Both the position numbers and the translations under genes were made by a program. From Deltaproteobacteria bacterium (GTDB lineage: Bacteria > UBA10199 > JACPAL01 > GCA-016699445), in assembly GCA_016699445.1 (NCBI GenBank), contig CP064976.1, forward strand, positions 1,618,952 to 1,682,951: 64,000 nucleotides of DNA, in the 5' to 3' direction. How positions within the stretch are numbered: the first letter of the stretch is position 1; every line of letters begins with the position of its first letter. The notes beneath the pieces were generated by a model. It made no database searches and was not told the DNA's origin. It worked only from the letters and a program-made list of their open reading frames with translations. Below are positions 35,885 through 60,692 of the stretch, piece by piece.

Positions 35885-35885
35885 A

Positions 35886-36335: not shown

Positions 36336-36338
36336 TTT

Positions 36339-36995: not shown

Positions 36996-37112
36996 AGGTG
37001 GCGAAGGGATAATGGGAAGGATTTTAAAAGTCAATTTTGTGAGAGTGGTACTTCTTGTCTTTTCTTCTGAGAGTGAGAACACGCGAAGGCTTAAAGGATT
37101 TTTTTAGTTATT

Positions 37113-37796: not shown

Positions 37797-38758
37797 ATGA
37801 TTTCTACACATAAGGGAATGTGTCTTGTTTATCACCCTCGTATCAATCAAGGCAGTATGGCTCGTGTATATCGTGGGCGTTGGGAAATGGTGTGGAGACG
37901 CAAGATGTTGCCATAAAAATGGTCAATGTAGATCGTGAAAAAAATCCAGATCTTTATGCTCTTGTTGTTCAGAGGTTTGAACGGGAAGCTAAAGTTTTAG
38001 AATTGTTGTCGGGTGTTCCTTACATGATGAGGCTTGTGGATCATGGGTCGGATTCCTTGCTTGTGTGTTCTTTGGTGGAAGGGGAGAGTTTAATGAACTT
38101 TTCCAGAGAAAAAATGATGGTGAAAGATCAGGCCCAATTGGCTTTGAAAATTGTGGATGCTTTGATGGGAGCTCATCAACGGGGCATTGTGCATGGAGAT
38201 GTCAATTCCACCAATCTCATGGTGGCCGACAATTCACCTGTCTTCATCGATTTTAACCTGGCTCAAAATTATCCACCGACAGCTCAAGGCTTTGGCGGCA
38301 AGTTTTCCCGAAAAGCTTTTGAAGGAGCCCCTGGATATTTAGCGCCTGAAATGTTTTTGGGGAAAAGTGTGGGCCAATCTGTTGATTTAACATGGGAAAA
38401 CGCTGTGCAGGTGGATGTCTATGGTTTGGGGGCTGTGTTGTATCATTTGTTTACAGGCTATATCCCCTACATGGGGTTAGATTTTGTTCGTGATCTGCTC
38501 AGTCAAGAAGCCTTTCAAGAAGCCGTTAATGAAGAGGACCGTCGGCGCAAATTATTTAAACATGTGGCTGAGTTGATGAATGCCTGGGGTACGGTAACCA
38601 ATCCTGCCGACGTAAATTATGAATTGCCTATCGAAATTGGGAATATAATTTTAGAATTACTTAATAAAAATCCTTCCAACAGGCCGTCTCTTTTGCAGGT
38701 GAAAAAAGTTTTAAGTCATTGGGTTAAAACTTCAGACTCTTTCGAAGCCGTAGCCTAA
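37797..38758 (+). CDS. Atypical eukaryotic-like Ser/Thr protein kinase-like protein (possible pseudokinase), with an apparent 1-bp frameshift at an A3 run (~37885-37887)
   Basis: The Gly-loop (INQGSMARVYRGRWE) is encoded from the ATG at 37797 in one frame. The motifs VAIK, HGDVNSTN (degenerate catalytic loop), DFN (instead of DFG) and GAPGYLAPE read in the next frame, and one extra A joins them. Confidence 0.6.
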
Positions 38759-38810
38759 AATTTAGCAACATTTCCACACTTTCACCGATAACTCTTAAGC
38801 CTATTGATAA

Positions 38811-39653
38811 TTGAAGGAGGCTTTGGTGAATTCGTTTTCTGTAAAACAATATAATCAAGAAGTAACACAGCTCTTTGGTTTTGTCGCAAGAACTGCAGTT
38901 TTAGCACAGCCATCTCAAGGGCTTACGAGCACAATAACAGCTCCTCAAGTCTCTCTTCCGTCTCAAACGGAAACGCTCATTCGGGCTTCCCAAAAGTCAC
39001 TTCAAACTATCGTTGGTCAAATGGGGGATTTCTCTCAAAAACTTCCGGCTGATTGGCAAGCCTATGTCAATTCGGCTGTTCATCCTGTGGTGACTGAAGG
39101 TGCGACGCCTACGGTAAATCAAGTCAATCTGGCTATCGAAGTCCTAAAAGCTGTGGGCTATTTACCGGTCAATAGAAGTGATGTCATGGCTTATGGAGCT
39201 TTTCTTGAAACTACATTTAAAAATGAAAGATTTAATCCTTGTCAGGTGATGTTTGTGGGGGCTCTTCAATCATTGAAAGCTAATACTTTGCTTCCAGATT
39301 TTTTTTCGCGACCGATAGCTTTGATAGGATCAGCTCTTGCGATCACGACAAGTGTCTATGTCTTGTATGATAATTTGGGTGAAGAATTGCGTGTTAACCT
39401 CTTGGGTCTTGCGGACGAGATGACCCGTTTAGTGCCTCAAGCCATTGCAAAAGAAAGTGCTCAAGGGATGAGTCGTGAAGAAGCAGCCAAAGTATTTAGA
39501 ACTTTAGCCAGTCGGGGAATGTTGGGGTCTTTGGCCGCTTCGGCAGCTCCGGTAGTCCCAGAAGTCTCGGAAGAAGAAAAGAGTCTTTCGGTGCCAATTT
39601 CCTCGAGACCTTCTTTATTAAATGATTTTTCGAACCCCTTAAAAATATTTTAG
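38811..39653 (+). CDS. Hypothetical protein, 280 aa
   Basis: An ORF with a TTG start in the track. A GTG at 38826 is preceded by GAAGGAGG. No motif was recognised. Confidence 0.4.
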   Translation: MKEALVNSFSVKQYNQEVTQLFGFVARTAVLAQPSQGLTSTITAPQVSLPSQTETLIRASQKSLQTIVGQMGDFSQKLPADWQAYVNSAVHPVVTEGATPTVNQVNLAIEVLKAVGYLPVNRSDVMAYGAFLETTFKNERFNPCQVMFVGALQSLKANTLLPDFFSRPIALIGSALAITTSVYVLYDNLGEELRVNLLGLADEMTRLVPQAIAKESAQGMSREEAAKVFRTLASRGMLGSLAASAAPVVPEVSEEEKSLSVPISSRPSLLNDFSNPLKIF

Positions 39654-39673
39654 GTATTGAATCATTAGCCGAT

Positions 39674-40369
39674 TTGACAATTGATCGCTGCTCTCAAATT
39701 TACAATGGGCTTGCTGTGGCGCTTAAAGGGCTTCAAGTAATCAGATCCAGTGAGGTCAATATTCATTTCCCTCTTCCGAGGGTGACAGGTGCCGCCCTTG
39801 ATTATCAGGAGTGTCTTGATTCGTTGAGAGTTTTATTGAGATCGGATCACTATCGAGAGACATCTTTATTTAAAGAAATATCAAAAGACGTGGATTTCGA
39901 CACAGATCCTTCGAGATTTGGTCAAAATATTATTGAACGTGTTTCAACACGTCTCGAAGCTCTTGTTAAAAGTTATGGTTTTGAAATTGATCCTAAACAT
40001 TTAAATGAGTTTTTTAAAGCGCAGATGGTTATCTCCACTGAAGGCAATTTTAAAAATCTTTCTTCTGATAAGAAATGGAGCAAGCTGCACAGTGATCTGG
40101 AAATCATTTTCAATCAAGTGATTAGCGCGAAAGGGTATTTTGCTAAAATGGGACTAGATCCTGTGACATTAAGAGCTCTTCCTGTGGGTTATCTTGCATT
40201 GGCTAAAGAATTGGCAAAAAAAGAAGCCCCTGCTGAGTTGCCGGAATTACCCCCTGAACTTTTAGAGAGTGATTCGGGTGATGATTCAAAAGATGGTTCT
40301 CAAGGTGACAGGGAAACTCCAGAAGAAGAGGCTGCGCGTCTTGAGCGTGCGGAAGAGGAAACAAAATAA
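39674..40369 (+). CDS. Hypothetical protein, 231 aa, with a strongly acidic C-terminal tail
   Basis: The C-terminus is ..ESDSGDDSKDGSQGDRETPEEEAARLERAEEETK. No motif was recognised. Confidence 0.4.
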   Translation: MTIDRCSQIYNGLAVALKGLQVIRSSEVNIHFPLPRVTGAALDYQECLDSLRVLLRSDHYRETSLFKEISKDVDFDTDPSRFGQNIIERVSTRLEALVKSYGFEIDPKHLNEFFKAQMVISTEGNFKNLSSDKKWSKLHSDLEIIFNQVISAKGYFAKMGLDPVTLRALPVGYLALAKELAKKEAPAELPELPPELLESDSGDDSKDGSQGDRETPEEEAARLERAEEETK

Positions 40370-40372
40370 ATT

Positions 40373-41647
40373 TCAACGGTTAGAATCTATTTGGAGTGCC
40401 TGAAAGGCTTGTTTCACTTGGTTGATATCGGGATAGCGCCCTGACGGAGTTTCTGAGAGATCTGTCGTGAGACATCTCGGGAGAAACGGTTTTAATTTTT
40501 CGGGAATATTGGAGAATTTTCGGTCCTGTGGATTTCTAAGAAAAAGATCCATGTGTTTTTGCAGCTGGGAGCCTGTGGCTTGATCAAATCCTCGAAAATA
40601 AAGTTTCTCAAACAGTGTGACACCTAAGCTGTAAACATCCCCTTGGGGAGACCAAAGAAATTTTTTGTTTTTAAATTCAGGATTTCCTGAATTAATGATT
40701 TCACACTCTGCTTCCGGAGGGATATAGCCGATGGTTCCGATACGATGGTGTTGGGGTTCTTGAATCTGAAGATCACGTTCATAGACGGAAAGAGCAAAGT
40801 CACAGAGTTTGAAATTTTGGTTTGGAAAGATGAGAATATTTCCGGGCTTGATGTCTCGTAATATTAGGTGGGTGCGCGGGCTTAGTTCTCCTTCGTGGGC
40901 GGCGGCGTAGAGAGAAAGAATGGATCCTAAAGTGGCCCAATCTTCACTTTCTGTTCCCATCATAAATTTATCAAAACTTTGAAGGGCGCTCTCCATACAA
41001 ATATCAAATAAAAATGTATCGTTTGCGGAACTTTCTGTGCATCCTCCAAAATCAAGAGCTTTCACCACATGTGGACTTTCTGTCCCTAACGTCATCGCTA
41101 GTTCCATCCAAAAGCCATAGGCTGGAATCACCTTGAGGTTGAGATCAGATCTTTTGAAACGTTTAATGGCTATTTCCCGATCAGAGTTTTCCCAAAGAGA
41201 GACTTCCGAAGAGCTATGAGGCCCTTCATGAATTGTTTTTGTTTTTGAAAAATCCTTCTTAATAAAAGGAGAATCCTGGGTCCCTTCTAAAATAGCCTTA
41301 AGACGTGATAGTACTTCATCAGAATTTTCTCCTATCAAGCCACAATGTTTGAAGGCAGCTCGGTTTCCTCTTAAGACAGCTTCAGGAGATACGTTATCAT
41401 CCGGAGTGAATTGATGGGCACGATTTAAGACTTTCAATCTGTGTTGAAGATCTTTTAAAAACTGAGCTCCTTGTTCACACGAAGCATCCAGATATTGAGC
41501 TGTAGAGACTGCTTGCTGGTAATAAGTATTGAGCAAACCATCATAATCAATGGCGCCAATATTTCGAGGCGCAGGGGAAGAATCCGTCATCCACGGAAAT
41601 TGTTTTTGGAGGGCGACAAATTGTTGAGTTAGGACCGAAGTATCCAT
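40373..41647 (-). CDS. Atypical eukaryotic-like Ser/Thr kinase-like protein with a ~140-aa N-terminal extra domain
   Basis: The motifs REIAIKRF (VAIK-like), LILRDIKPGNIL (catalytic loop), KLCDFALS (DFA in place of DFG), GTIGYIPPE and DVYSLGVTLFE are present. Confidence 0.65.
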   Translation of the reverse strand: MDTSVLTQQFVALQKQFPWMTDSSPAPRNIGAIDYDGLLNTYYQQAVSTAQYLDASCEQGAQFLKDLQHRLKVLNRAHQFTPDDNVSPEAVLRGNRAAFKHCGLIGENSDEVLSRLKAILEGTQDSPFIKKDFSKTKTIHEGPHSSSEVSLWENSDREIAIKRFKRSDLNLKVIPAYGFWMELAMTLGTESPHVVKALDFGGCTESSANDTFLFDICMESALQSFDKFMMGTESEDWATLGSILSLYAAAHEGELSPRTHLILRDIKPGNILIFPNQNFKLCDFALSVYERDLQIQEPQHHRIGTIGYIPPEAECEIINSGNPEFKNKKFLWSPQGDVYSLGVTLFEKLYFRGFDQATGSQLQKHMDLFLRNPQDRKFSNIPEKLKPFLPRCLTTDLSETPSGRYPDINQVKQAFQALQIDSNR

Positions 41648-41686
41648 TCATGAAATTCGTCGAAGCTTTAAAAGAAAAGTTTCGAA

Positions 41687-42262
41687 TTATTGACGGCAAA
41701 GAATAAAATATTGTCCGATCGATTTTCCTTTTTTGGTCGCTTCGCCAATAAAGACGTTTTTGGACACACGTCGCAGGTAGTCCTTCATATACCCATAAAC
41801 CAACTTTGTGAGTCCGGTTTCGTTGGATTTAATTTCCGGCCAGCCAGCGACATTTTCTTTGGGAAGTCGGGTGTAGTCCACCATGATTTCCCCTGGGCGA
41901 TCAGTAGCCTCATCAATCACAAAACATCCAGGACCTGTGATTTTTTGGAATGTCTGAAAATTATACCCCCACACTTTAGATCCATCCCCCGATCCAGAAA
42001 GAGCCATTCTTTTTTGAAAAGTTGAAAAAAGAGGAAGTGAATTTTTCCCGTAAAAAATGACTTCCTGCAAAGGTTTAGCATCGGAGGGCATCAAGTCTGA
42101 AAATTTCAAATCAGGAGTCGCGATTTGAAAAAGACAAGATTGAAACTTCCCTCCGACACTATTGATTTCCTTTAATCGATCTTCGTGACTCAACCCATCC
42201 AAAAAAGCCCCAATACTTTTTTGTGATTTCCCTGCCTTAATCATCTCAAGAAGCGACGACAT
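41687..42262 (-). CDS. Hypothetical protein, 191 aa
   Basis: An ORF with no recognised motif. Confidence 0.4.
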   Translation of the reverse strand: MSSLLEMIKAGKSQKSIGAFLDGLSHEDRLKEINSVGGKFQSCLFQIATPDLKFSDLMPSDAKPLQEVIFYGKNSLPLFSTFQKRMALSGSGDGSKVWGYNFQTFQKITGPGCFVIDEATDRPGEIMVDYTRLPKENVAGWPEIKSNETGLTKLVYGYMKDYLRRVSKNVFIGEATKKGKSIGQYFILCRQ

Positions 42263-42307
42263 AGTACCCCCTTTATGTTGTCTGTTTTGTGAGAGTGGAG
42301 TGTGGAG

Positions 42308-43732
42308 TTATTTTTTCATCGACTCAATTAAAATCTTTGCCACTTCAGGTCGGGAAAATTCCACAGGAGGCAATGTACCTTGAGTTAAGAGCTCGCGGAC
42401 CTTGGTGCCTGAAAGTGTGACGCGGTCTTCTGCAGCGTGAGGACAGGTTTTGTTAGAAGCCATGCCTTCGCATTTTTTGCAGAAGAAAGTGTGGTCAAAG
42501 AAAAGAGGTGTGATGCCGATTTCTTCCGGTGTGAATTCATTAAAAATGAAGTGAGCATCGAAAGTGCCATAGTAATTACCCACACCGGCATGATCACGAC
42601 CAACGATAAAATGTGTGCAGCCATAATTTTTGCGGATCAAGGCATGGAAGATCGCTTCACGAGGTCCAGCATAGCGCATGGACGCAGGATTGACCGCCAA
42701 AACTGTACGATCCATAGGGTAATAATCTTTAAGCAAAACTTCATAACATTTCATACGCACGTCTGCAGGAATATCATCACCTTTGGTATCTCCCACGAGC
42801 GGGTGGATCAAAAGACCATCACAGATTTCCAAAGCGACTTTGGTCAAATATTCATGAGCACGGTGGATTGGATTGCGCGTTTGAAAAGCGACAATACGCT
42901 TCCATTTTTTTTCTACAAAAAGAGCACGCAGAGCTGAGGGATCTAATCTTTGAGGAAGAAAATCAGAATAGCTCACACGATTGAGAACTTCGACTTTTCC
43001 ACCCAAGTAGACGTCGCCTTGTTTTTTGACGACGGCCACGCCGGGATGAGCCTCTTCAGTGGTTTTGTAAACTTTTTGGCATTCGAGCTCTTTTTGAGCC
43101 AAATATTTTTCTTCCAAAAGAAGAACAGCCAATTCTTTGCCGGTTTCGTCTGTGAGTAAAATGGGTTTCCCAATGGCAAATTTTTCAGCCTCTTCTTTGC
43201 TCACAGCCAGAGTAATGGGAATCGTCCAAGGAGCCCCGTTGGCTAAGTGCATATTATTAACAACACCCAAATAATCTTTTTCCCCCATAAATCCTTCAAG
43301 AGGTGAGAGGGCGCCGCAAGCGATCATATCCAGATCACTTTTTTCACGAGAACCGAGAACGATCTTCGGAAGACTGGCTGCTTGTGAAAGCCATTGAGAA
43401 CGTTTTTGGGAATCAACCACGCGGTTGATCAGAGTGCCACCATGAGCTTCGATAGGCGCTCCACCCGCAATCGCTGGCACGATGGATAATTCATCGCCTG
43501 CTTTGACGGGTGTGGCTTCGCCATTGAGGAAACGGATATCTTCGTTGTTCACATAAAAATTAATGAAGCGGCGTAATCCACCTTTTTCATCATAGAGACG
43601 CTCTTTGATGCCGGGGTATTGTTTCTCTAAATCCGCCAAGAGGTCTTTGACGCTCGCGCCAGCAGCGGAGACTTCGCCTAAGTTGGCGGTGATTTTTTGT
43701 AGGGGTGTGGGGATGCGGACTTTGATCGACAT
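42308..43732 (-). CDS. sat: Sulfate adenylyltransferase (ATP sulfurylase) with an in-frame N-terminal MoaD/ThiS-like ubiquitin-fold sulfur-carrier domain ending in Gly-Gly
   Basis: Residues 1-91 (MSIKVRIP...KAGDELSIVPAIAGG) resemble MoaD, including a C-terminal ..GG. They are followed directly by the canonical Sat N-terminus APIEAHGGTLINRV, then QTRNPIHRAHE and GRDHAG, for 474 aa in total. Confidence 0.85.
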   Translation of the reverse strand: MSIKVRIPTPLQKITANLGEVSAAGASVKDLLADLEKQYPGIKERLYDEKGGLRRFINFYVNNEDIRFLNGEATPVKAGDELSIVPAIAGGAPIEAHGGTLINRVVDSQKRSQWLSQAASLPKIVLGSREKSDLDMIACGALSPLEGFMGEKDYLGVVNNMHLANGAPWTIPITLAVSKEEAEKFAIGKPILLTDETGKELAVLLLEEKYLAQKELECQKVYKTTEEAHPGVAVVKKQGDVYLGGKVEVLNRVSYSDFLPQRLDPSALRALFVEKKWKRIVAFQTRNPIHRAHEYLTKVALEICDGLLIHPLVGDTKGDDIPADVRMKCYEVLLKDYYPMDRTVLAVNPASMRYAGPREAIFHALIRKNYGCTHFIVGRDHAGVGNYYGTFDAHFIFNEFTPEEIGITPLFFDHTFFCKKCEGMASNKTCPHAAEDRVTLSGTKVRELLTQGTLPPVEFSRPEVAKILIESMKK

Positions 43733-43742
43733 ATATTTCTCC

Positions 43743-44204
43743 TTAAATTATTTTTTTTTGGTTGTAACCTTTCAGGGATTCGTCCCAGAAAAATTCGTTA
43801 ATTTCTTTTAACTCTCTGTTGTAAATCGATACCACTAAATACGAAATGCCGGGATAGCTGGGCTCTCCCCACGGAGCGGCGACTAGGCGATCTTCTTCTG
43901 AAAAATAAGCGTCGTGCTCGCAATGTGAATGGTAAATACATTTCACTTCTTGTCTGTTTTTTTCAGCTTCATCAAAAATACGCTGCTGTTCTTTTGGATC
44001 AATCAAGTAGGCAGTTTTAGCAGTGCGTGGGTATTGATCCGGATATTTTTCATGCATGTCGTTATAAATATTTTTGATCGGAATAAATTCCGCCACAGAC
44101 TCTTGACCTTTGTCTCCAATTAACAATCCACAGGATTCGTCAGGCCAATGTTTTTTGGCGTAAGCGACAATCGTCTCAATTGTTTTATCGCAAATAATCG
44201 TCAT
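43743..44204 (-). CDS. JAMM/MPN+ metalloprotease (Mec+/CysO-hydrolase-like)
   Basis: The JAMM motif HSHCEHDAYFSEED (H-x-H-x7-S-x2-D) and the upstream conserved Glu (ESCG) are present in a 153-aa protein. Confidence 0.8.
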   Translation of the reverse strand: MTIICDKTIETIVAYAKKHWPDESCGLLIGDKGQESVAEFIPIKNIYNDMHEKYPDQYPRTAKTAYLIDPKEQQRIFDEAEKNRQEVKCIYHSHCEHDAYFSEEDRLVAAPWGEPSYPGISYLVVSIYNRELKEINEFFWDESLKGYNQKKII

Positions 44205-45103
44205 ACTTCAAAATACCTCTCTCCATGATCACAAAAAATGGTGACGATGGTGCCTTCCTGAATTTTTTCAGCCACGCGTAGCGCCGCGGCCATATTGCCT
44301 CCTGAAGAATGACCCACAATCAAGCCTTCTTCATGAGCGAGGCGTTCTGACATATCGTAAGCAGGCTCGGTTTCCATCGAAATCTTTTGATCTAACTCAT
44401 TTTCTTTATAAATCCCAGGCACGATCGATGACGCCATATGCTTCATACCTTCAAGCCCATGCATGGCATTGTCGGGCTCCACAGCAATGACTTGAATGTT
44501 TTTGTTATAATCTTTTAACCGTCGACCCGTTCCCATCACCGTGCCACCTGTACCAATACCTGCTATGAAGTGGGTGACTTGATGATCTGTTTGTTCCCAA
44601 ATTTCAACGCCTGTACTGTCATAATGAGCGCGTGGGTTGAATTCGTTGTTATATTGATCCGGCATAAAATAACGATCGGGATTTTCTTTTAGAAGTTTTC
44701 GTGCGAGCAAAATCGCTCCATCAGAACCTTCCATCGGCGAGGAATAAATAATATTCGATCCAAAAGTTGTCACAATAAGCTTGCGCTGAGGACTGACGTT
44801 TTCGGGCATGACGAGATCGATCTTGATCCCCATGGCCGCTCCGATCATCGCGTAGGCCACACCCGTATTCCCAGAAGTGGAATCCAACACCGTCTTCTCT
44901 TTTGTCAATTTTCCTGATTTCAAACCTTCTTGAATCATGCGTAAAGCCGGACGATCTTTGATTGAACCACCGGGATTAAAATACTCAAGCTTGGCATAGA
45001 TCTTCACTTTGCCCGATTGGATTTGAGGCAATTCTTTCCCAACCTCGCGAATGCGTACGAGTGGAGTGTTTCCAATTTTTTCTAGAATGGAATGGATCAG
45101 CAT
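44201..45103 (-). CDS. cysM: CysM-type cysteine synthase B / O-phosphoserine sulfhydrylase-like PLP enzyme
   Basis: The motifs GNTPLVRI, NPGGSIKDRPA (PLP Lys), TSGNTGVAYA and GIGTGGT are present in a 300-aa protein. The gene overlaps the JAMM gene by 4 bp. Confidence 0.8.
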   Translation of the reverse strand: MLIHSILEKIGNTPLVRIREVGKELPQIQSGKVKIYAKLEYFNPGGSIKDRPALRMIQEGLKSGKLTKEKTVLDSTSGNTGVAYAMIGAAMGIKIDLVMPENVSPQRKLIVTTFGSNIIYSSPMEGSDGAILLARKLLKENPDRYFMPDQYNNEFNPRAHYDSTGVEIWEQTDHQVTHFIAGIGTGGTVMGTGRRLKDYNKNIQVIAVEPDNAMHGLEGMKHMASSIVPGIYKENELDQKISMETEPAYDMSERLAHEEGLIVGHSSGGNMAAALRVAEKIQEGTIVTIFCDHGERYFEV

Positions 45104-45122
45104 AACATCACGTGAGAGAAGA

Positions 45123-45458
45123 TTAAGACTCCATCACACTAATCTCAATGGGCTCGACCTTCACACCACGTTTGCGAAAATAGGCAAAAGCTTTGTCGAG
45201 AACACTGACGGGCGCTTCGAGCTCAAGTGCGATCAGCCCGAGATTGTCACTGACAGAAGCTGAGCGAATGTTGAAACGCACTTTATAGAGATCATACATA
45301 TCGCAGATAATAGCTTCTTTGGTTTGGCGTTCTGGAAAGGTCACATAGACTTTGCGGCGGACCACAGGGTCTTTGTTTGTACTTGTTGTTTTTTTTGAAG
45401 CCATAATGTCTCCAGTTTGATGGTTCGACAAGCTCACCATGTCCTTGATGAGTGACAC
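45123..45458 (-). CDS. Small protein resembling a NIL domain (MetN C-terminal-like ferredoxin-fold sulfur-amino-acid-associated domain)
   Basis: The pattern ..EAIICDMYDLYKVRFNIRSASVSDNLGLIALELEAPVSVLDKAFAYFRKRGVKVEPIE resembles the NIL domain. The true start may be the internal MASKK at 45404. Confidence 0.35.
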   Translation of the reverse strand: MSLIKDMVSLSNHQTGDIMASKKTTSTNKDPVVRRKVYVTFPERQTKEAIICDMYDLYKVRFNIRSASVSDNLGLIALELEAPVSVLDKAFAYFRKRGVKVEPIEISVMES

Positions 45459-45490
45459 CCTGAGGCTGTCGAAGGGTTTAGTTTACTTTT

Positions 45491-46717
45491 TCAATGCAGC
45501 ATCCACCTCATCAATTCGGGGTTGATGATCGTTGGTTTGCCGACATGTCCTGTCATGGCTTCCTGGGTTTTGAGGCCATTGCCAGTGATACAGATGACGA
45601 CCGATTCATCTTTTTTAATTTTACCCAGCTTGATTAATTTCTTAGCCACACCCGTGGTGACGCCACCAGCTGTCTCAGTAAAGATACCTTCGGTTTCACC
45701 CAAAAGTTTAATCGCTTCGACAATTTCTTCATCGGACACATCTTCACTCCAGCCCCCTGTTTCTTTCATCGACTGCATGGCGTAAAAACCATCGGCTGGA
45801 TTTCCAATCGCTAGCGACTTGGCGATGGTGTTGGGTTTGACCGGTTTGAAAAGTTCCCAATCATTTTTTAAGGCTGTTGCAATGGGCGAACATCCCGTGG
45901 CTTGAGCCCCGTGGACTTTGCATTTTGGGTCGGTATTGTCAGTAAGGAGGCCGATCTTATGAAACTCCTTCATCGCTTTATGGACTTTGGTTAAAAGAGA
46001 TCCACTGGCCATCGGCACGACGACGTGATTAGGCACTTTCCATCCCAACTGCTCCATCATTTCATAAGCCAATGTTTTGGATCCTTCAGCGTAGTAAGGG
46101 CGGATGTTGATATTGACGAAAGCCCATTTATACTTGGCTCCGATTTCACTGCAGAGACGATTGACTTCATCGTAGGTGCCGCGAATGCCAATCACGTTAG
46201 CCCCATAGACAAGGGTGCCCAAGACTTTACCTGCTTCCAAATCATAAGGAATAAAGACGTAACATTCGAGTCCCGCTGAGGCAGCATTGGCCGCGACAGA
46301 GTTGGCGAGATTTCCCGTCGACGCGCACGAGACGGTTTTAAAACCAAACTCTTTGGCTTTTGAAAGTGCGACAGAAACCACACGATCTTTAAATGAAAGA
46401 GTGGGGTAGCAAACAGCATCGTTTTTAACCCAAACTTCTTTGACGCCTAAAGCTTTCGCCAAATTTTTAGCAGGAACCAATGGTGTGTATCCTGCGAGAA
46501 CTCCCACGGTAGGATCTTTTTCGATAGGAAGAAGCTCTCGGTAACGCCACATGGTTTGAGGACGCTTTTCAATTTTTTCTCGTGTGAGAGATTTGGCAAT
46601 CTGGTCGTAATTGTAATCCACTTCCAGAGGACCAAAACAAAATTCACAGACATGAGTGGGTGCGATCGGAAAATGATGACCACACTCGCGACACTTAAGA
46701 CCTTTTATGTATGACAT
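45491..46717 (-). CDS. Threonine-synthase-family PLP enzyme with an N-terminal Cys4 zinc ribbon
   Basis: The ribbon is KCRECGHH..CEFCFG. The ThrC PLP-lysine motif TLSFKDRVVS and Gly-rich loops are present. The ORF track extends to 46774 and overlaps the upstream gene. Confidence 0.8.
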   Translation of the reverse strand: MSYIKGLKCRECGHHFPIAPTHVCEFCFGPLEVDYNYDQIAKSLTREKIEKRPQTMWRYRELLPIEKDPTVGVLAGYTPLVPAKNLAKALGVKEVWVKNDAVCYPTLSFKDRVVSVALSKAKEFGFKTVSCASTGNLANSVAANAASAGLECYVFIPYDLEAGKVLGTLVYGANVIGIRGTYDEVNRLCSEIGAKYKWAFVNINIRPYYAEGSKTLAYEMMEQLGWKVPNHVVVPMASGSLLTKVHKAMKEFHKIGLLTDNTDPKCKVHGAQATGCSPIATALKNDWELFKPVKPNTIAKSLAIGNPADGFYAMQSMKETGGWSEDVSDEEIVEAIKLLGETEGIFTETAGGVTTGVAKKLIKLGKIKKDESVVICITGNGLKTQEAMTGHVGKPTIINPELMRWMLH

Positions 46718-46727
46718 ATATTTGCTC

Positions 46728-47527
46728 CTAATGAATAAATTTCTTCTGCAAACTAAAATATCTTTCTCCGCCATCGGGAAAGACAGTGACGACAGTTTTA
46801 TTTTTATCTATTTGCTGAGCGATCTGACGACTCGCCACAAAAGCGGCTCCGCACGAGATGCCCACCAGCAAACCTTCTTTTTGAGCGACTTCACGAGCGC
46901 CTAAAAAAGCTTCTTCATCGGTGATCGTGATGATCTCATCCACCAAAGAACGATCCAAGATCGTGGGAACAAATCCCGGGCCGATTCCTTGAATCTTATG
47001 ATGCCCCACTTTCCCTTGGCTGAGAGTCGGTGACGCAGCGGGTTCTACCGCAATGATTTTGGTTCCGTTCTTCTTTAAAATTTGAGCCGCTCCCATCAGC
47101 GTCCCGCTCGTTCCGATACCGGCGACGAAAAAATCGATCGGTTTCCCGAGATCCTTTTGAATCTCCTGAATTGTCTGATGATGCGCTTTGGGCGTTTCTT
47201 CATTTTCAAACTGATCAAAAAAATACGCGTCTGTTTTTTGGCATAATTCTTTGGCCCGATCGAGAGCGCCTTTATCCCAATATAAGCCAATCCAATCCCC
47301 GAATTTCCCGTCGTCGCGGCCACAATAGTGCCGCGAGCCGCGAGCCGCGAGCTCTTCTCCGCTTTCTCTAGAAGGTGTATGACAACTCGATCTTTAACCG
47401 AACCACCTGGATTATACTTCTCCAGCTTGGCATACACGGACGCACACCCCTCTGGCAGGCTTTTACTCAGCCTTAAAAGGGGGGTATTTCCAATGGCTTC
47501 AAGCAACGATTCCATAATAAGATCCAC
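46728..47527 (-). pseudogene. O-acetylserine sulfhydrylase (CysK/MccA-like) pseudogene with an internal ~115-bp out-of-frame deletion
   Basis: The N-terminal 110 aa (..NPGGSVKDR..TTGNSGIGLAYIG) and the C-terminal ~200 aa (DKGALDRAKEL..FVAGIGTSGTL..GIGPGF..) are CysK-like but lie in different frames. About 39 aa of the conserved core (..YKL.LTMPE..ERR.LL.A.GA.LVLT..) is absent between them. A (ccgcgag)x3 heptamer tandem sits at 47331-47351. Confidence 0.7.
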
Positions 47528-47531
47528 AAAT

Positions 47532-47700
47532 AAAAAAACCTCTTCCAGATAAGAAGAGGTGTGATTGAAGGTCTCTTCTCATCTGTCCCCATCTGCATTT
47601 AACTGCAGGGTTGGAGTTAGCACCATTTCTCCTTTTTTTTAGGAGACGGTTGCTGTGACGTCTTAGGGCCTTTCCCTCGGTCACTCTTGATAAGGTGCCG
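47532..47700 (-). ncRNA. SAM-I (S-box) riboswitch with an intrinsic terminator expression platform
   Basis: The minus-strand RNA reads CACCUUAUCAAGAGUGACCGAGGGAAAGGCCCUAAGACGUCACAGCAACC..GGAGAAAUGGUGCUAACUCCAACCCUGCAGUUAAAUGCAGAUGGGGACAGAUGAGAAGAG. This matches the S-box core (UUAUCAAGAG.G..GAGGGA..GGCCC.A.GA..GCAACC, AUGGUGCUAA.UCC..CUGCAG, GAUGAGAG). A CCUCUUC/GAAGAGG hairpin plus U7 follows at 47532-47559, immediately upstream of the cysK-like start. Confidence 0.8.
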
Positions 47701-47701
47701 C

Positions 47702-47731
47702 AAAGTAGGGGAAATGGGAGGTTGTTGTCAA
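47702..47731 (-). promoter_or_regulatory. Putative sigma70-type promoter of the riboswitch-led operon
   Basis: A minus-strand TTGACA (47726-47731) is separated by an 18-nt spacer from TACTTT (47702-47707). This places the TSS at the riboswitch P1 helix. Confidence 0.4.
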
Positions 47732-47793
47732 TACGAATGGCAAAGAATAAGTGTTTTCTTGATCTATACTACTTAGTCGTATAGCATTACCTG

Positions 47794-48144
47794 ATGAGAA
47801 GATTGTTTGTTGAAGCTGAGGGGTTTCGTAAGAGAATAGATCAATTAAAACAACCTCTACTGTTACGTTTAATTCAGAATGAAATTTTAAAAGATCCTCA
47901 TCGAGGGACTGTGATTCCTGGTTTGGGAGGGTTAAGAAAAATAAGAATTGGAGATGTAGAAAAAGGAAAAGGTAAACGGGGTGGATATAGAGTTGTTTAG
48001 CTAGATTTGATGAAGAAAGAAAAAACATATCTGATTTGGATTTATTCTAAGAACGAATCTGAGGATATGACCCCAGACGAAAAGAAAACCATTCGCCATT
48101 TGGTGGATGTATTAAAGAAGGAGAATCAATCGTATGAAAACTAA
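47794..48144 (+). pseudogene. HigB/RelE-family toxin interrupted by an in-frame TAG at 47998-48000
   Basis: The sequence ..ILKDPHRGTVIPGLGGLRKIRIGDVEKGKGKRGGYRVV* resembles this family. The downstream in-frame continuation LDLMKKEKTYLIWIYSKNE..LVDVLKKENQSYEN is the expected C-terminal half of the same family. Confidence 0.55.
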
Positions 48145-48463
48145 AATGGGCCAAGCCTTAATTGAAGGGTTAAATGATATTGTTGAATATGAAAAAGGGA
48201 AAAAGAAGTTGAGATCTTCTTTTATGGATATTCCACCACCAGCGCCTGTGTGGAGTCAGAAGAAAATATCTAAATTGCGTAAGGAGGTTTTTAAAGTGAG
48301 TCAGACCGTTTTTGCTGCGATGTTGAGTGTGAAGCCTGCAACAATTCGTGCCTGGGAGCAGGGACTGAAATCTCCTTCTGGAGCTGCAAACCGTTTGATT
48401 CAAATTATTTCTATTTCTCCCGATATTTTTAAAAAATTAGCTCTCATCTCCATCAGAGGTTGA
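48134..48463 (+). CDS. HTH (XRE-family) antitoxin, HigA-like
   Basis: The HTH segment is SQTVFAAMLSVKPATIRAWEQG. The gene overlaps the 3' end of the toxin remnant. Confidence 0.55.
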   Translation: MKTKMGQALIEGLNDIVEYEKGKKKLRSSFMDIPPPAPVWSQKKISKLRKEVFKVSQTVFAAMLSVKPATIRAWEQGLKSPSGAANRLIQIISISPDIFKKLALISIRG

Positions 48464-48536
48464 GCTGCTTTTTGCTTACACAAGGTATCTATTAAAGATA
48501 GTCAGTCTTTCCAGAATTCGATAAAGTCTTTCATTC

Positions 48537-51446
48537 ATGAAAAAACTTAAACTTGTTTTCATGCTGCTGGCTTTTCTTTTTTCACAGAAACTCTCTGCAG
48601 CCACTTACGATCCCAAGCTCGTCTGGCGCACGGTGACGACCGATCATTTTCATATCCATTATTATCAAGGAGAAGAAATGGTCCTGAAAAAGATCGTTCC
48701 GATGGTGGAAGAGGTTTATCAGGAGCTCACCAAACGTTGGGATTGCTATCCTTGGGGGCGGACGGAAGTTGTGGTCACGGATAATTATGATCAGGCCAAC
48801 GGACTCACCGAAATTGTTCCTTACAATCTCATCGTGCTGCGCCTGGTGCCTCCGACGGCGGATTCGTCGTTGGCGGATGTCGATGATTGGATGCGCGGGC
48901 TTTTTACTCATGAGTTTACCCATGTCCTTCATCTGACGGATACGCGCTATCCAGCGCGGTTGTTGAAATTTCTTTTTGGAAGCATGGTCGCTCCCAATGC
49001 CTTGACGCCTGGTTGGGTGATTGAGGGTTTGCCGACCTATTTTGAAACCAAAGAAGGGCATGGAGGGCGTGGCCATTCGGCGTATGCCGACATGCTTCTG
49101 CGTACGGATATTCTGAAAAATCAATTTCTGAAAATAGACGAGATGCCGGGGAGTCAATACGACTGGCCTGCGTGGCAAGCCCAATATCTCTATGGTGTGG
49201 GTTTTTGGAATGAGCTTTCTGCAAAATATGGCGAAGAGTCCGTTATGAAATTTAGCCATAAATACGGCGCGTCTTTATGGTTTTTTTCTCTCAACAATAA
49301 ATCCAAAAGGTCTTTTAAGGATCAAAACGGAAAAGGAAAAAGTTTTTATTCCCTCTGGAAAGATTGGAAAGGGAATTTGGATTTAAAATATGGGGCTCTT
49401 AAAAAAGAATTAGAAGCGGAAGGTCTTAAAGAAGGTGAGGCTTATCTGACGCCTCAAAAAGGCGAGAGTTTTACCCAGCCTGTTTTTTCTCCTGATCGAC
49501 AGGCTCTTGTTTATATCGCCAATTCTGTCGATCATCCTATCCAATTGCGCTTGCGAGATTTGAAAAGTGGGAAAGAGAAAATTCTCCTGACCAAAAAAGA
49601 AATTCAGCAGATGAGTTTTTCTCCAGACGGAAAAAAACTGATTTATTCGGCTTATGGAAATTTTAAAAGATATTACAATGTCGCCGATCTTTATGAGCTG
49701 GATCTAGAAACTTTAAAATCAACACAGCTCACCCAAGGCAAACGCGCTCGTGATCCGGATGTCTCTCCCGATGGGAAAAAGATTATAGCGGTCGTTCAAG
49801 ATACGGGGGGAGCGACGCTGGCTATTTTTGATCGTGAAACAAAAGAGTGGAAAACTGTTTTGAATGTTGAACAAGCCAACTTCCCTCGTTGGGTGAACGA
49901 TCAGGATGTGGTCGTCATGCTTCATCAAAAGTCAGATCTTCAAGATCGAAAAAGTTGGAATCTTTTTTTAGTGCGCACAGACACAGGGGCTCTCCAAGCA
50001 TTGACTCAGGATGGTATCGTTCAAAGCCGACCAGTCGTGGATCGTGATCAGGAGAGGGTTTACTTTTCTGCAGACAGAAAAGGGATTTTTAATGTGTATG
50101 CGTTTGATTTGAAAACGGGTGAGGAAGAAAAGATTACCAATGTCACCAGCGGAGCTTTTGCTCCTGCGTTGCCTCAGGATGGTAAGATTGTTTTTCAGTA
50201 TTATGATGGAAAAGGGTATGAGTTAAGATCCGTAGGGGCGCCATTGATGGCGCCCAGCAATCATGACGTTTTGCATCCGGTTGTTGTGGAAAATGGGGAG
50301 GTTTCTGGGCGTGATGAATCACACCCCTACGATTCTCGTCATTATAGTCCTTGGAAAAAGCTTCTAGTGCCACGTACTCTTTTCCCAAACTTGGCTGTCA
50401 TCGACGGATCATTTTTTCTTTCCGGAACCCTCATCAACAACGATCCCCTCAATCGCCATCTTTGGTTTGCGGATGTGAACTATCGCAGCGACAATAAGTT
50501 TTTGGGTTATGGTGCAGGGTATACGTATAATCGTTATCGCACTCCTGTGAGTCTTGGTTTTGTTGATTACTCGGTGAATTATGGAAATATTTACGGAGCG
50601 GGTTTTGATTATTTTGAAGAGCGTCGGAGAGGGTTTGTCGGCATTGGATATCCTTGGAAATCAAACCGATTGTCTCTCAACTATTTTTTCGAAAATAGGA
50701 CGACCCAATCAGGGCTTCCTTCAGGAGCGGCGGCGCCCACACTAGGTCGCTATGCGGGTTTTGTCGCTCAATACACCTATCGCAAAACATCGTCGACATT
50801 AGCGTCTATCAGCACAGAGACAGGGAGTCGTGTGACGGTCAACTTTGAAGGGACGGACCATCATTTAGGTTCTTCTCACGATTTGGAGCAGTATGTCGCT
50901 TGGGGCGATGCACGTACGTATGTGGAAATGCCTTATGCGAAACATCATGTGATCGCCTGGAGAGCTGCGGGTGGCGCGGCGTTTGGTGATCAACTCTTTC
51001 AGGGGAATTTTGGTTTGGGGGGAGCGTTGGGTGAGAGTCCTTTTACGGGAACGACCACAAGACTCTTCACGCTGAGAGGTTTGCCGCTTTCGACATTTTC
51101 CCGAGATCGGGTGTGGGTGACTTCTTTAGAATATCGACTTCCTTTAGTGAGTATTCAACGCGGTTTGGGCACACTTCCTTTTGCGATCAATCAAGCGCAT
51201 TTCGCTTTTTTTGCCGATATGGGGGATGCGATGCGACGCAGCAATACACAGTTTAAGCCTCTCTTGGGCGTGGGCGCCGAGCTGCGCGCGGACTTCATTT
51301 TAAGCTGGCACCCGCCTGTCACGGGCAGATTAGGATACGGTGTCATCGTGACCAACCGCGATCGTATCACGGGCGCCAAAGACGATCTGACGGGCGCGGA
51401 TGCGAGAAATGGTGTGGTCGTGATGGAATTGGGAACGTCGTTTTAA
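48537..51446 (+). CDS. Outer-membrane multidomain protein: signal peptide, HExxH zincin-like metallopeptidase domain, TolB-like beta-propeller and Omp85-family C-terminal beta-barrel
   Basis: The signal is MKKLKLVFMLLAFLFSQKLSA. The motif FTHEFTHVLH (HExxH) is followed by repeated SPDGKK(L/I)I.. blades. The C-terminal ..LGVGAELRADFILSWHPP..GYGVIV..NGVVVMELGTSF ends in Phe like bacterial-surface-antigen barrels. Confidence 0.55.
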   Translation: MKKLKLVFMLLAFLFSQKLSAATYDPKLVWRTVTTDHFHIHYYQGEEMVLKKIVPMVEEVYQELTKRWDCYPWGRTEVVVTDNYDQANGLTEIVPYNLIVLRLVPPTADSSLADVDDWMRGLFTHEFTHVLHLTDTRYPARLLKFLFGSMVAPNALTPGWVIEGLPTYFETKEGHGGRGHSAYADMLLRTDILKNQFLKIDEMPGSQYDWPAWQAQYLYGVGFWNELSAKYGEESVMKFSHKYGASLWFFSLNNKSKRSFKDQNGKGKSFYSLWKDWKGNLDLKYGALKKELEAEGLKEGEAYLTPQKGESFTQPVFSPDRQALVYIANSVDHPIQLRLRDLKSGKEKILLTKKEIQQMSFSPDGKKLIYSAYGNFKRYYNVADLYELDLETLKSTQLTQGKRARDPDVSPDGKKIIAVVQDTGGATLAIFDRETKEWKTVLNVEQANFPRWVNDQDVVVMLHQKSDLQDRKSWNLFLVRTDTGALQALTQDGIVQSRPVVDRDQERVYFSADRKGIFNVYAFDLKTGEEEKITNVTSGAFAPALPQDGKIVFQYYDGKGYELRSVGAPLMAPSNHDVLHPVVVENGEVSGRDESHPYDSRHYSPWKKLLVPRTLFPNLAVIDGSFFLSGTLINNDPLNRHLWFADVNYRSDNKFLGYGAGYTYNRYRTPVSLGFVDYSVNYGNIYGAGFDYFEERRRGFVGIGYPWKSNRLSLNYFFENRTTQSGLPSGAAAPTLGRYAGFVAQYTYRKTSSTLASISTETGSRVTVNFEGTDHHLGSSHDLEQYVAWGDARTYVEMPYAKHHVIAWRAAGGAAFGDQLFQGNFGLGGALGESPFTGTTTRLFTLRGLPLSTFSRDRVWVTSLEYRLPLVSIQRGLGTLPFAINQAHFAFFADMGDAMRRSNTQFKPLLGVGAELRADFILSWHPPVTGRLGYGVIVTNRDRITGAKDDLTGADARNGVVVMELGTSF

Positions 51447-51528
51447 TGTATAATATCATTCAATTTGAGAAATTTCTTGGTTGTTTTGTAAAAACTAGAT
51501 AGAATTTCATAGTTTACAAATTAATCTC

Positions 51529-51987
51529 ATGAGTCCGGGGGGAACTGTGAGTGACTGGAAAGTTTTACTCGTTGATGACGAAAAAGATTTTTGGGAAGAT
51601 CTCTATGATCGTCTATCCGTTGTCTTCGGAAAGATGAATGTTCTGATTGCTTCTTCCGGTGAAGAGGCTCTTCAAATTCTCAAAAATCAACCTATTGGTG
51701 TGATCCTTTCGGATCAACGCATGCCAGGTGTTTCGGGTCATGAATTATTAGAAGAAGTCTCACGACGTTGGCCTGATGTTGTGCGAATACTTCTGACAGC
51801 ATTTCCTGATATCAGATCTGCCAAAGACTCTGTGAATAAAGGTGAAATTTATCAGTATGTTTCAAAAAGCACATCTTTGTCGGAAATTGAATCTTTAGTG
51901 AAAAGTGGTTTGCAGAAGTTTGAGTCGGATGAAAAGACGTCAGCTTTTGAAGGAAAAACAGGAGTTTTTGAAAAAGCTTTATATTGA
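51529..51987 (+). CDS. Response-regulator receiver domain, probably the N-terminal part of a REC-PP2C protein
   Basis: The receiver motif is VLLVDDEKD..LSDQRMPGVSGHEL. Its 3' end overlaps the PP2C ORF in another frame. Confidence 0.6.
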   Translation: MSPGGTVSDWKVLLVDDEKDFWEDLYDRLSVVFGKMNVLIASSGEEALQILKNQPIGVILSDQRMPGVSGHELLEEVSRRWPDVVRILLTAFPDIRSAKDSVNKGEIYQYVSKSTSLSEIESLVKSGLQKFESDEKTSAFEGKTGVFEKALY

Positions 51988-52687
51988 AGAGCATCTTCTT
52001 CCAGAATCGACTCCCAAAATACCCGGCCTCTATTTCGATTCTTACTATCAATCGGCTCAGGAAGTCGGAGGCGATTATTTTGATTTTATCGAAATTGATG
52101 AACGTTATTTAGGTATTGTGGTGGCAGATGTTTCGGGAAAAGGGTTGGAGAGTTCGATGTTGATGTCGATTGTCTGTCATGCCTTGAGGTCTCAGGCAGG
52201 ATTGAGTTTGTCTCCTCGAGAGGTCATTGATGAGACTGAAGGTCTTCTTCTTCCCAAGCTTGGACAAAATCACTTTGTCACACTTTTTTATGCAATTTTG
52301 GATCGCAAGAAGATGACACTCAAGTGTTCTAATGCTGGTCATCCTCCATTGCTCGTTGGAAACCGTATAACAGGAAAAACTCATTGGGTTCGGCCCAAGG
52401 GTGTGGCTTTGGGGCTTAGTCGTTTTCAAAGAATTACTGTCAGGGAAGAGTGTGAGGTTTCACTAAATCCAGGAGATTTTCTTTTTTTCTATACAGATGG
52501 TGTGACGGAAGCTCGTAATAGCGATGATGATTGTTTTGGTCGTAAACGTTTGGAAACATTTTTCTCCGAAACTTCCCGAGAGAAAATTCAAATCATTCAT
52601 GAGTTAAAAACAGAATTAGAAAATTTTGCAGAAGGTGCCCCACAGCAAGATGACGTGACGGCGGTCTATCTAGAAAGGTGTGCGTAG
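51929..52687 (+). CDS. PP2C/SpoIIE-family Ser phosphatase (RsbU/RsbP-like)
   Basis: The motifs EVGGDYFDF, VADVSGKGL, FYTDGVTEA and DDVTAVYL are present. It may be fused to the upstream receiver through a frameshift. Confidence 0.7.
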   Translation: MKRRQLLKEKQEFLKKLYIEEHLLPESTPKIPGLYFDSYYQSAQEVGGDYFDFIEIDERYLGIVVADVSGKGLESSMLMSIVCHALRSQAGLSLSPREVIDETEGLLLPKLGQNHFVTLFYAILDRKKMTLKCSNAGHPPLLVGNRITGKTHWVRPKGVALGLSRFQRITVREECEVSLNPGDFLFFYTDGVTEARNSDDDCFGRKRLETFFSETSREKIQIIHELKTELENFAEGAPQQDDVTAVYLERCA

Positions 52688-53051
52688 TATGTCTCATTTT
52701 GATGTCGAAGTTTTGTTTTCCGAAAATCAACCAAGTAAAGCTGTCTTGCGATTGGTTGGGAGTCTAGATGCATTTGCTCTTTCTCAGATTGAAAAGCGTA
52801 TCCAAACATTGATCCGTGATGAACAAAAAATAAAACTCGTCGTGGATTGCGGAAAACTCAAATTTATTTCTAGCCCCGGCTTAGGGCTTTTTTTGGGAAC
52901 TTTGAATGAGTTGGAAAAACGTGGTGGAAAATTAATTTTTTCCCAAGTCATCCACCCTGATGTGAATGATGCAATGAGCTGTCTGGGTTTTTTTGATATT
53001 TTTCAGGCTTATAACTCTGAAGAGGAAGCGTATCGACATTTGGATGATTAA
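52680..53051 (+). CDS. STAS-domain anti-sigma-factor antagonist (RsbV/SpoIIAA-like)
   Basis: A 123-aa protein with the phosphorylatable Ser region (FISSPGLGLF). Confidence 0.75.
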   Translation: MRSMSHFDVEVLFSENQPSKAVLRLVGSLDAFALSQIEKRIQTLIRDEQKIKLVVDCGKLKFISSPGLGLFLGTLNELEKRGGKLIFSQVIHPDVNDAMSCLGFFDIFQAYNSEEEAYRHLDD

Positions 53052-60666: not shown

Positions 60667-60692
60667 AAGAGAGTCCTTAAATTATTAAATAT

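Follow-up and report, generated by a model that had tools for sequence, protein, structure and literature searches.

The minus strand of the 64-kb window (the whole 64,000-nucleotide (nt) stretch of contig CP064976.1 analysed here) carries, from position 47731 down to 42308, one compact array of seven domains in six genes behind an S-adenosylmethionine (SAM) riboswitch, a putative operon for methionine and cysteine synthesis that uses a protein thiocarboxylate as sulphur donor. The genes are, in order, cysK, a gene for an enzyme of the threonine synthase (ThrC) family, a NIL-domain gene, a cysM-like gene, a JAMM protease gene and a ThiS::ATP-sulfurylase (ThiS::Sat) fusion gene, with successive intergenic gaps of 10, 86, 19, −4 and 10 nt; all operon features given below are on the minus strand. 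This layout had been proposed in a sequence-only reading of the same DNA, and all of its elements are found where that reading placed them. Hidden Markov model searches run on each open reading frame (ORF) also confirm every domain assignment, while the starts of the cysK, ThrC-like and NIL genes had to be corrected. Given the gene spacing, and as no terminator-like site within the cluster has a good T-run, we infer that the six genes are co-transcribed.

The leader begins with a promoter-like site (47702–47731) composed of a perfect −35 box TTGACA (47731–47726), an 18-nt spacer and a −10 box TACTTT (47707–47702), and its predicted transcription start falls at about the first base of the aptamer. 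A TTGACA is also found upstream of the aptamer at a comparable distance in many relatives of the operon. The single promoter that had been claimed for the six genes is therefore present as a plausible consensus-like site, but its −10 box reads as weak from the sequence and the promoter scanner left the TTGACA/TACTTT site below its threshold and did not report it. The aptamer (47576–47696) matches the SAM-I (S-box) family RF00162 with 74.5 bits (E 1.3e-15; gathering score 44.4) over model positions 1–108 of 108, and is the sole Rfam family match across the window. It is followed by an expression platform (47531–47585) with an antiterminator, a terminator hairpin and a U-run: the terminator-like hairpin ACCUCUUCUUAUCUGGAAGAGGU lies at 47560–47538 (−12.8 kcal/mol) and the U-run at 47537–47532, while the antiterminator pairs 47585–47573 with 47558–47546 (−18.2 kcal/mol) and is adopted in the unconstrained fold of the leader. 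The antiterminator's 5′ arm coincides in part with the 3′ strand of P1, and its other arm uses the 5′ arm of the terminator. Such an architecture is that of a classical S-box off-switch. By computation, at high SAM the aptamer would close P1, free the terminator and stop transcription; at low SAM the antiterminator would form and the operon would be transcribed. The terminator design CCUCUUCUUA...AAGAGG followed by Un is common to most relatives, nearly always behind their aptamers. Both the RF00162 score and the terminator/antiterminator platform bear out the S-box riboswitch with terminator that had been read here before.

We then compared the operon with related loci. A one-genome-per-species scan with the NIL alignment, in which IICDMYD was one of two search patterns, yielded 29 loci, all in metagenome-assembled genomes (MAGs) labelled Deltaproteobacteria, Myxococcota, 'Pseudomonadota', Nitrospira or bacterium, with several named UBA10199; these loci and four others from protein look-ups were mapped with phmmer. 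The order cysK – ThrC-like – NIL – CysM-like – JAB – thiS is kept in ∼30 loci (UBA10199/"Deltaproteobacteria" MAGs), in all of which the NIL gene holds its position, and a SAM-I aptamer lies ahead of the first gene in ∼20 loci and is lacking from seven evaluable ones. The gene combination had been called unusual from the window alone; it is instead standard across a whole uncultured lineage, and relatives of the operon with ThiS::NIL fusions occur in other phyla. Nearly all loci that extend far enough keep sat downstream of the carrier gene, and the two adjoin, overlap or are fused in about one-third: sat overlaps or closely trails thiS in L003–5, L007, L011, L025 and L032, and is fused to it in the window, L035 and L001. 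In other loci, thiS and sat are split by genes for a variant radical-SAM protein, a Na/sulphate symporter, a Usp protein, an AAA_14 ATPase, kinases or an adenosine phosphosulphate (APS) kinase. These inserted genes had been candidates for an E1-type activating enzyme, a rhodanese or a reductase, and proved to be none of these; none of them was found in the window. The variant radical-SAM protein (∼390 amino acids (aa); family NF045502, above the cut-off in L018 only) directly follows the carrier gene in L012, L018, L020, L022, L023 and L030, and the Na/sulphate symporter and Usp genes often lie behind it.

The second gene (45491–46717; PALP 235.6 bits) encodes a 408-aa MetM-like pyridoxal phosphate (PLP) enzyme of the ThrC family. 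Its start is the ATG at 46717, which has an AGGAG ribosome-binding site, and not position 46774; the protein carries a zinc ribbon (CxxC...CxxC) at its N terminus and the PLP lysine in the motif PTLSFKDR. We predict that it is a homocysteine synthase that depends on a carrier thiocarboxylate, as MetM does. The MetM/MetO pathway of Streptomyces albulus was reportedly described by Hasebe et al. in 2024. According to the GapMind 2026 preprint and an mSystems paper, MetM of this organism forms homocysteine from O-phosphohomoserine and MetO thiocarboxylate, Mec and MoeZ act as helpers, and a SAM riboswitch lies upstream of metM; the authors of the preprint add that annotations often mistake MetM for a threonine synthase.

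The link between the window and this pathway runs through a proxy pair. A homologue search with the ThrC-like enzyme returned relatives of at least 70% identity only and did not reach the Streptomyces MetM, and a tblastn search against PLSDB found a locus of Nonomuraea gerenzanensis (in a chromosome-sized record) in which a SAM-I riboswitch (68.7 bits) is followed by a zinc-ribbon ThrC-like gene and by a gene for a 91-aa MoaD-like protein ending in AVAGG. The two ThrC-like proteins are 54% identical (408 bits), and the carrier domain of the window is 52% identical to the MoaD-like protein. The layout of this Nonomuraea locus is the one reported for metM–metO of S. albulus. Because both members of this pair are so similar and stand behind a SAM riboswitch, homology and context together suggest a MetM/MetO-like function for the window genes. 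The window indeed combines a ThrC-fold PLP enzyme that retains its lysine with a CysO/MetO-type carrier in the same operon behind RF00162. Furthermore, the signature N-x-R-P-Y/F-Y-A-E-G-S-K-T together with the zinc ribbon is common to the MetM-like family across phyla, and the enzyme is 68% identical to ThrC-like genes beside ThiS::NIL in other phyla.

Alternatively, the ThrC-like enzyme could be an ordinary threonine synthase, with the carrier, the JAMM protease and the CysM-like enzyme serving cysteine synthesis only and SAM control acting through the O-phosphohomoserine branch point. Sequence models alone would call it so, as TIGR00260 (thrC) gives 283.8 bits with a cut-off of 167.1 and the best solved relatives are threonine synthases. 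However, these solved enzymes match with 164–199 bits only, and the protein is far closer to the riboswitch-linked actinomycete paralogue that adjoins a MoaD-like carrier. In different phyla alike, its gene is linked to those for ThiS, ThiS::NIL and JAB, and an upstream S-box fits methionine metabolism and not threonine metabolism. We consider an ordinary threonine synthase improbable.

The presumed sulphur carrier is the N-terminal part of the last gene product, a 474-aa fusion in which a ThiS domain (PF02597, residues 5–91) is joined by an A-P linker to PUA_2 and ATP-sulfurylase domains. The carrier domain (residues 1–91; 43460–43732; PF02597, 59.1 bits) is of the CysO/MetO type and ends in ...PAIAGG; its best solved relatives are CysO of Mycobacterium tuberculosis (3dwg_C; 76 bits, full length) and then 4n6e_B, a second actinomycete ThiS/MoaD protein. 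The Sat part (42308–43459; PF14306 and PF01747) scores 556.8 bits against NF003166 (cut-off 387) and 444.6 bits against TIGR00339 (cut-off 322.95), and the motifs QTRNPIHRAH and GRDHAG (HxxH and GRD) are read in its translation. In the primary product the C-terminal glycine of the carrier, Gly91, is not free, as the 383 residues of the ATP sulfurylase part come directly behind it.

A fused carrier in this assembly could be suspected of being, like the broken cysK, an artefact of error-prone assembly, as several 1–2-nt homopolymer indels split genes of the window compared with L035. The latter is a Logan contig from an independent assembly that is 98.8–99% identical to window positions 35485–54047, shares the riboswitch and encodes identical NIL and JAB proteins (JAB 100%). 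Because the junction AIAGGAPIEAHGG is identical in L035, the ThiS::Sat fusion is real and an assembly artefact is excluded for it. A different junction, GGSELPIAAHGG, is found in L001, a separate ThiS::Sat fusion with the linker SELP in place of AP. In a neighbour-joining tree of Sat, the fused window and L035 sequences are separated from the fused L001 by the unfused L006, L002 and L003–5; this separation and the different linkers point to two independent origins of the fusion. Such a fusion would be easy to reach, given the 4-nt overlap between thiS and sat that is seen in relatives. The artefact explanation for fusion and broken cysK together is, in our view, highly improbable, also because the cysK lesion (described below) is a 116-nt loss beside a 9%-diverged tract and not a homopolymer slip.

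A carrier with a C-terminal extension is usual in this lineage. Among 27 unfused relatives (three from the same organism), 25 have carriers that extend 1–6 residues past the invariant PAIAGG, while only L016 and L019 stop at GG; in addition, Sat and NIL are each found fused behind an intact AIAGG. This suggests that C-terminal trimming by the JAMM protease is the rule here and that the Sat fusion is an extreme form of extension. The trimming protease would then be part of the normal pathway, given the 25 of 27 unfused carriers that extend past GG. There is a biochemical precedent: a linear SAMP1–MoaE fusion becomes active when HvJAMM1 cleaves it precisely behind GG (PMC4443979). A catalogue of 2006 lists ThiS/MoaD–JAB neighbourhoods that also contain cysteine synthase, or else ATP sulfurylase together with other sulphate-assimilation genes, and includes a ThiS–sulphite reductase fusion (PMC1779556).

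The protease is the product of the fifth gene (43743–44204; Prok-JAB PF14464, 71.6 bits), a 153-aa JAMM/MPN+ metalloprotease of Mec/HcyD-like type. Its metal site reads as intact in the translation (E23...H92-S-H94-x7-S102-x2-D105), and a comparison with PDB sequences gave only weak matches to uncharacterised JAMM proteins. In principle, ThiS and JAMM could instead form a ubiquitin-like protein-modification system of the sampylation type that regulates enzymes, a reading that finds some encouragement in sub-threshold NCBIfam matches to SAMP1 (52.8 bits; cut-off 60) and desampylase (58.2 bits; cut-off 130) and in the regulation of an enzyme by covalent linkage in the SAMP1/HvJAMM1 system (PMC4443979). 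The closest solved relative of the carrier is nevertheless the sulphur carrier CysO, the context behind the SAM switch is purely one of sulphur amino-acid metabolism, and no E1, E2 or E3 is encoded nearby. We give protein modification a very small probability.

The fourth gene (44201–45103; PALP 228 bits) encodes a CysM-like cysteine synthase of 300 aa, which scores below the cut-offs of TIGR01138 (cysM; 356.8 bits, cut-off 394.2) and cysKM (339.1 bits, cut-off 344.15). In PDB sequence searches, it matches CysM of M. tuberculosis with 190 bits in an alignment that stops at residue 279 and does not reach the part of the mycobacterial protein past residue 280, compared with ∼212 bits for CysM of Escherichia coli/Salmonella and up to 225 bits for ordinary cysteine synthases. 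These searches did not place the enzyme in the mycobacterial CysM subtype. These scores leave room for an enzyme that uses free sulphide or thiosulphate like enterobacterial CysM, in which case only homocysteine synthesis would be carrier-dependent and the rest of the model would still hold. Gene order speaks against this alternative: the cysM-like gene always lies directly upstream of JAB–thiS in the relatives and overlaps the JAB start by 4 nt in the window, and a separate cysK already serves the sulphide route in the ancestral operon. We therefore regard a sulphide-using CysM as unlikely, although it is gene order alone that suggests use of the carrier by this enzyme.

The third gene (45123–45404; PF09383, 43.9 bits, gathering score 24) encodes a stand-alone NIL-domain protein of 93 aa that probably starts at ATG 45404. 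Its AF2 model is of moderate confidence (predicted local distance difference test (pLDDT) 70.6), and the best Foldseek match is the methionine-binding C2/NIL domain of the methionine importer MetN, with its ferredoxin-like fold (3dhx_A; TM 0.64, E 9e-4). The subfamily is small, with 179 relatives at E ≤ 1e-3 in an exhaustive phmmer search of 1.84 billion representatives. Several of these relatives are fusions: in P0253, P0254, P0283, P0300 and P0367 the NIL domain follows a ThiS of the CysO type whose AIAGG is intact, and in P0296 it follows a JAB protease. Tandem NIL proteins also occur. In P0318 (238 aa), a single ORF combines part of a MetM-like protein with the C-terminal portion of ThiS (…AIAGG) and a NIL domain; this may be a triple fusion or a gene call that is chimeric.

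ThiS::NIL fusions form a large family, with 1,741 proteins at E ≤ 1e-10, both domains in all of the top 120, and source names from Thermodesulfobacteriota, Deltaproteobacteria and Ca. Limnocylindrales. The three gene contexts that were read are (i) the order MetM-like – ThiI-like PP-loop ATPase – TusA – ThiS::NIL – JAB, with ThiF and PALP genes nearby; (ii) the same arrangement with a PALP gene inside the cluster; and (iii) in a Limnocylindrales MAG, the MetM-like gene followed by ThiS::NIL only. Compared with the window, the MetM-like proteins of these clusters (L037 2001–7974, L039 2606–9246 and L038 5664–7516) are 68% identical, the ThiS parts 56–57% and the NIL parts 43–52%. We conclude that NIL truly belongs with the carrier, the JAMM protease and the MetM-like enzyme. 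Genetic data show that the DUF39 pathway, an unrelated route to homocysteine, also requires a NIL/ferredoxin protein (PMC5764234). A search of the literature for a connection between NIL and ThiS/MoaD was negative. As to its role, we can offer a guess: NIL may sense a ligand for feedback, or recognize aminoacyl adducts for the protease. That it is an obligatory and hitherto undescribed third component of thiocarboxylate-dependent homocysteine synthesis is a tentative proposal, to which we give somewhat less than an even chance. A further idea, that the conserved cysteine of the NIL motif IICDMYD is a persulphide site, was abandoned, as the motif was a pattern used to collect the loci and ThiS::NIL fusions lack the cysteine.

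The first gene, cysK (O-acetylserine sulfhydrylase A-like; 46728–47515), is a pseudogene in the window. Only PALP/cysK fragments are recognized, with profile matches that cover model positions 1–84 and 179–295; its start is ATG 47515 and not the GTG at 47527 of the sequence-only reading. Compared with L035, in which cysK is intact (295 aa), 116 nt are replaced by 1 nt at ∼47274, a net deletion of 115 nt that causes a frameshift. The 3′ remnant (46743–47273) is 9% diverged from L035, compared with ∼1% in its flanks, and its codon changes are mostly synonymous (30 synonymous, 12 non-synonymous); the diverged tract stops exactly at the inactivating deletion. These differences suggest that cysK was inactivated recently, beside a recombination tract. 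Other lesions are of another kind: 1–2-nt homopolymer indels at 51931, 39625, 37881 and 45517 distinguish the window from L035; they interrupt the reading frames of a response-regulator/SpoIIE gene and of two Ser/Thr-kinase-like genes, and the 1-nt deletion in the C-run at 45517 alters the last 11 residues of the ThrC-like enzyme. The lysA gene, sucB and the 3′ end of sucA also appear to be split (8696–9924, 26193–27415 and ∼25900). The homopolymer indels would reflect either error-prone assembly or a strain that accumulates lesions and pseudogenes; an artefact is possible for the 1-nt indels and may also be the source of the cysK lesion.

Absence of an E1, an APS reductase and a sulphite reductase had led the sequence-only reading to regard the pathway as incomplete. 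With respect to the E1, the absence is supported by phmmer searches of the six-frame translation of the window, in which ThiF, TusA, ThiI-like, APS kinase, sulphate symporter and variant radical-SAM proteins have no match at E ≤ 10; with respect to the two reductases, none was seen on reading through the ORF translations of the window. The conclusion of incompleteness holds in so far as the E1 is absent from the cluster, but such absence is normal for CysO- and MetO-type systems, which draw on a shared activating enzyme whose gene lies elsewhere, as with MoeZ in M. tuberculosis and Streptomyces; the missing E1 is not in itself unusual. We also find a complementary pattern: clusters of the UBA10199 type contain Sat and lack ThiF, TusA and ThiI-like proteins, while the ThiS::NIL clusters contain the latter three and lack Sat. 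Sat is an adenylyl-transferring enzyme whose superfamily also contains enzymes that adenylate carboxylates. As ThiF, TusA and PP-loop ATPases are lacking from all of the ∼30 clusters while nearly all that reach far enough downstream keep Sat, one might speculate that the carrier is loaded without a classical E1 in this lineage and that the Sat module takes over activation or sulphur delivery, in which case it might act with NIL or with the variant radical-SAM protein of the relatives. We regard this as very doubtful.

Taken together, these results make it probable, in our judgement, that the locus is a SAM-repressed operon in which a carrier thiocarboxylate, matured by the JAMM protease, is used by the MetM-like enzyme for homocysteine and probably by the CysM-like enzyme for cysteine, with Sat feeding sulphate assimilation, cysK lost and NIL as an accessory. 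The protease would cut the ThiS::Sat precursor after Gly91 (AIAGG|AP), releasing a free Gly-Gly carrier and a normal ATP sulfurylase that would activate sulphate to APS for the assimilatory branch. A MoeZ/ThiF-type E1 encoded elsewhere would adenylate and thiocarboxylate the carrier. By homology and synteny, the MetM-like enzyme would then condense the carrier thiocarboxylate with O-phosphohomoserine, and the CysM-like enzyme would condense it with O-phosphoserine or O-acetylserine; after an S-to-N acyl shift, the same JAMM protease would hydrolyse the carrier–homocysteine and carrier–cysteine adducts. The cysK gene would represent the direct sulphide route of the ancestral operon, inactivated in this genome. 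The weakest step concerns NIL, which is likeliest to be a methionine- or homocysteine-type ligand-binding or adaptor subunit, for feedback or adduct recognition.

A thiocarboxylate-dependent methionine and cysteine pathway, as first read from the sequence, is thus supported by the CysO-like carrier, the Nonomuraea pair, the ∼30 conserved loci and the need for JAMM processing. Several results weigh against it. Besides the threonine synthase call of the sequence models and the scores and gene-order argument given above for the CysM-like enzyme, (i) no E1, APS reductase or sulphite reductase is found in the window or in the ∼30 related clusters, and carrier loading is assumed; (ii) there is no SAM riboswitch at the MetM-like/ThiS::NIL clusters examined from other phyla; and (iii) as several genes of the window are frameshifted, among them cysK and, at its 3′ end, the MetM-like gene, this copy of the operon may be partly impaired.

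Around the operon, a conserved hypothetical protein of 191 aa is encoded 45 nt downstream of sat (41687–42262, minus strand). This ORF follows sat only in the closest relatives (L002–L006 and L035), and a family search gave no significant match (best DUF4334, E 0.043), so it was dropped as a core member of the operon. A hairpin at 42255–42282 overlaps its start codon, and it may be co-transcribed with the operon. Divergent from the operon promoter, a toxin–antitoxin-like pair, judged by eye from the translations, lies at 47794–48463 on the plus strand, with a RelE/HigB-like toxin split in two frames (47794–48000 and 48007–48144) and a helix–turn–helix antitoxin-like ORF (48134–48463); a 115-aa minus-strand ORF that overlaps the pair (47681–48028) is probably spurious. 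Farther away on the minus strand, two tandem paralogous genes of ∼940 aa (57844–60666 and 60693–63503) have identical signal-peptide/N-terminal regions, near-identical C-terminal regions and diverged middles, and a third, C-terminal fragment (63530–63931) accompanies them. The stretch 57844–63931 appears to be a recent tandem duplication of a secreted protein.

The operon would extend the thiocarboxylate route to homocysteine, recently described in Streptomyces, to an uncultured MAG lineage of the UBA10199 type, with related clusters in Thermodesulfobacteriota-like and Chloroflexota genomes, whose annotations routinely list the key enzyme as a threonine synthase. Under one SAM switch, cysteine and homocysteine synthesis seem to share the same carrier and the same JAMM protease. 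The extension behind the carrier can be as short as one residue or as long as an entire enzyme (Sat) or domain (NIL), and each form would need a JAMM cut. That NIL recurs in fusions with the carrier or with the protease suggests that it is a missing component of the pathway. Since NIL is also needed in the DUF39 homocysteine route, a common role in handling homocysteine or methionine is directly testable.

We finally compared the operon with known systems. It shares with MetM/MetO of S. albulus, by likeness through the Nonomuraea pair, a ThrC-homologous PLP enzyme and a GG-ending MoaD/ThiS-type carrier behind a SAM riboswitch; a Mec-type JAMM protease and a MoeZ-type E1 are reported as helpers there. 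By contrast, the carrier gene of the window is not adjacent to that of the enzyme, follows cysM and JAB, and is fused to Sat, so that its product must be cleaved; the window operon also adds NIL, the CysM-like enzyme and, ancestrally, cysK, and belongs to an uncultured lineage outside the Actinomycetota. The mec–cysO–cysM cysteine pathway of M. tuberculosis, reportedly the work of Burns et al. in 2005 and O'Leary et al. in 2008, has a CysO-type carrier, a JAMM protease and a CysM-family PLP enzyme clustered in the same manner, with the E1 (MoeZ) elsewhere. However, CysO of M. tuberculosis ends at GG without the extension seen in the window, its cluster lacks the riboswitch, MetM, NIL and Sat, and the CysM-like enzyme of the window is not specifically close to mycobacterial CysM.

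The HcyS/HcyD/HcyF/MetY pathway of Wolinella succinogenes is said to have been described by Krishnamoorthy & Begley in 2011, and later literature confirms a carrier-dependent MetY. The HcyS system and the 'type 4e' neighbourhoods of Iyer et al. 2006 (PMC1779556) share with the window a carrier extension removed by JAMM and the clustering with ATP sulfurylase and sulphate-assimilation genes. Wolinella uses MetY, an O-acetylhomoserine sulfhydrylase of a different PLP fold, whereas the window has a ThrC-type enzyme, and the Wolinella cluster encodes an E1, a phosphoadenosine phosphosulphate (PAPS) reductase and a sulphite reductase, none of which is in the window cluster. The NIL protein belongs to the same Pfam family as the MetN C2 domain and the NIL/ferredoxin protein of the DUF39 pathway (PMC5764234) and shares their methionine/homocysteine context, but it stands alone without an ATPase or ferredoxin part, in a subfamily otherwise fused to ThiS or JAB. 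In the SAMP1–MoaE/HvJAMM1 system (PMC4443979), a carrier is likewise fused via GG to the following enzyme and is inactive until JAMM cuts after GG; its cargo is MoaE, a part of molybdopterin synthase, whereas the cargo in the window, ATP sulfurylase, is no direct user of the carrier. In brief, each component has a described relative and the operon is no new kind of system. Its novelty lies in the joint layout for cysteine and homocysteine behind a single S-box, in the carrier::Sat precursor, in the C-terminal extension that the carriers generally have and in the repeated association with NIL.

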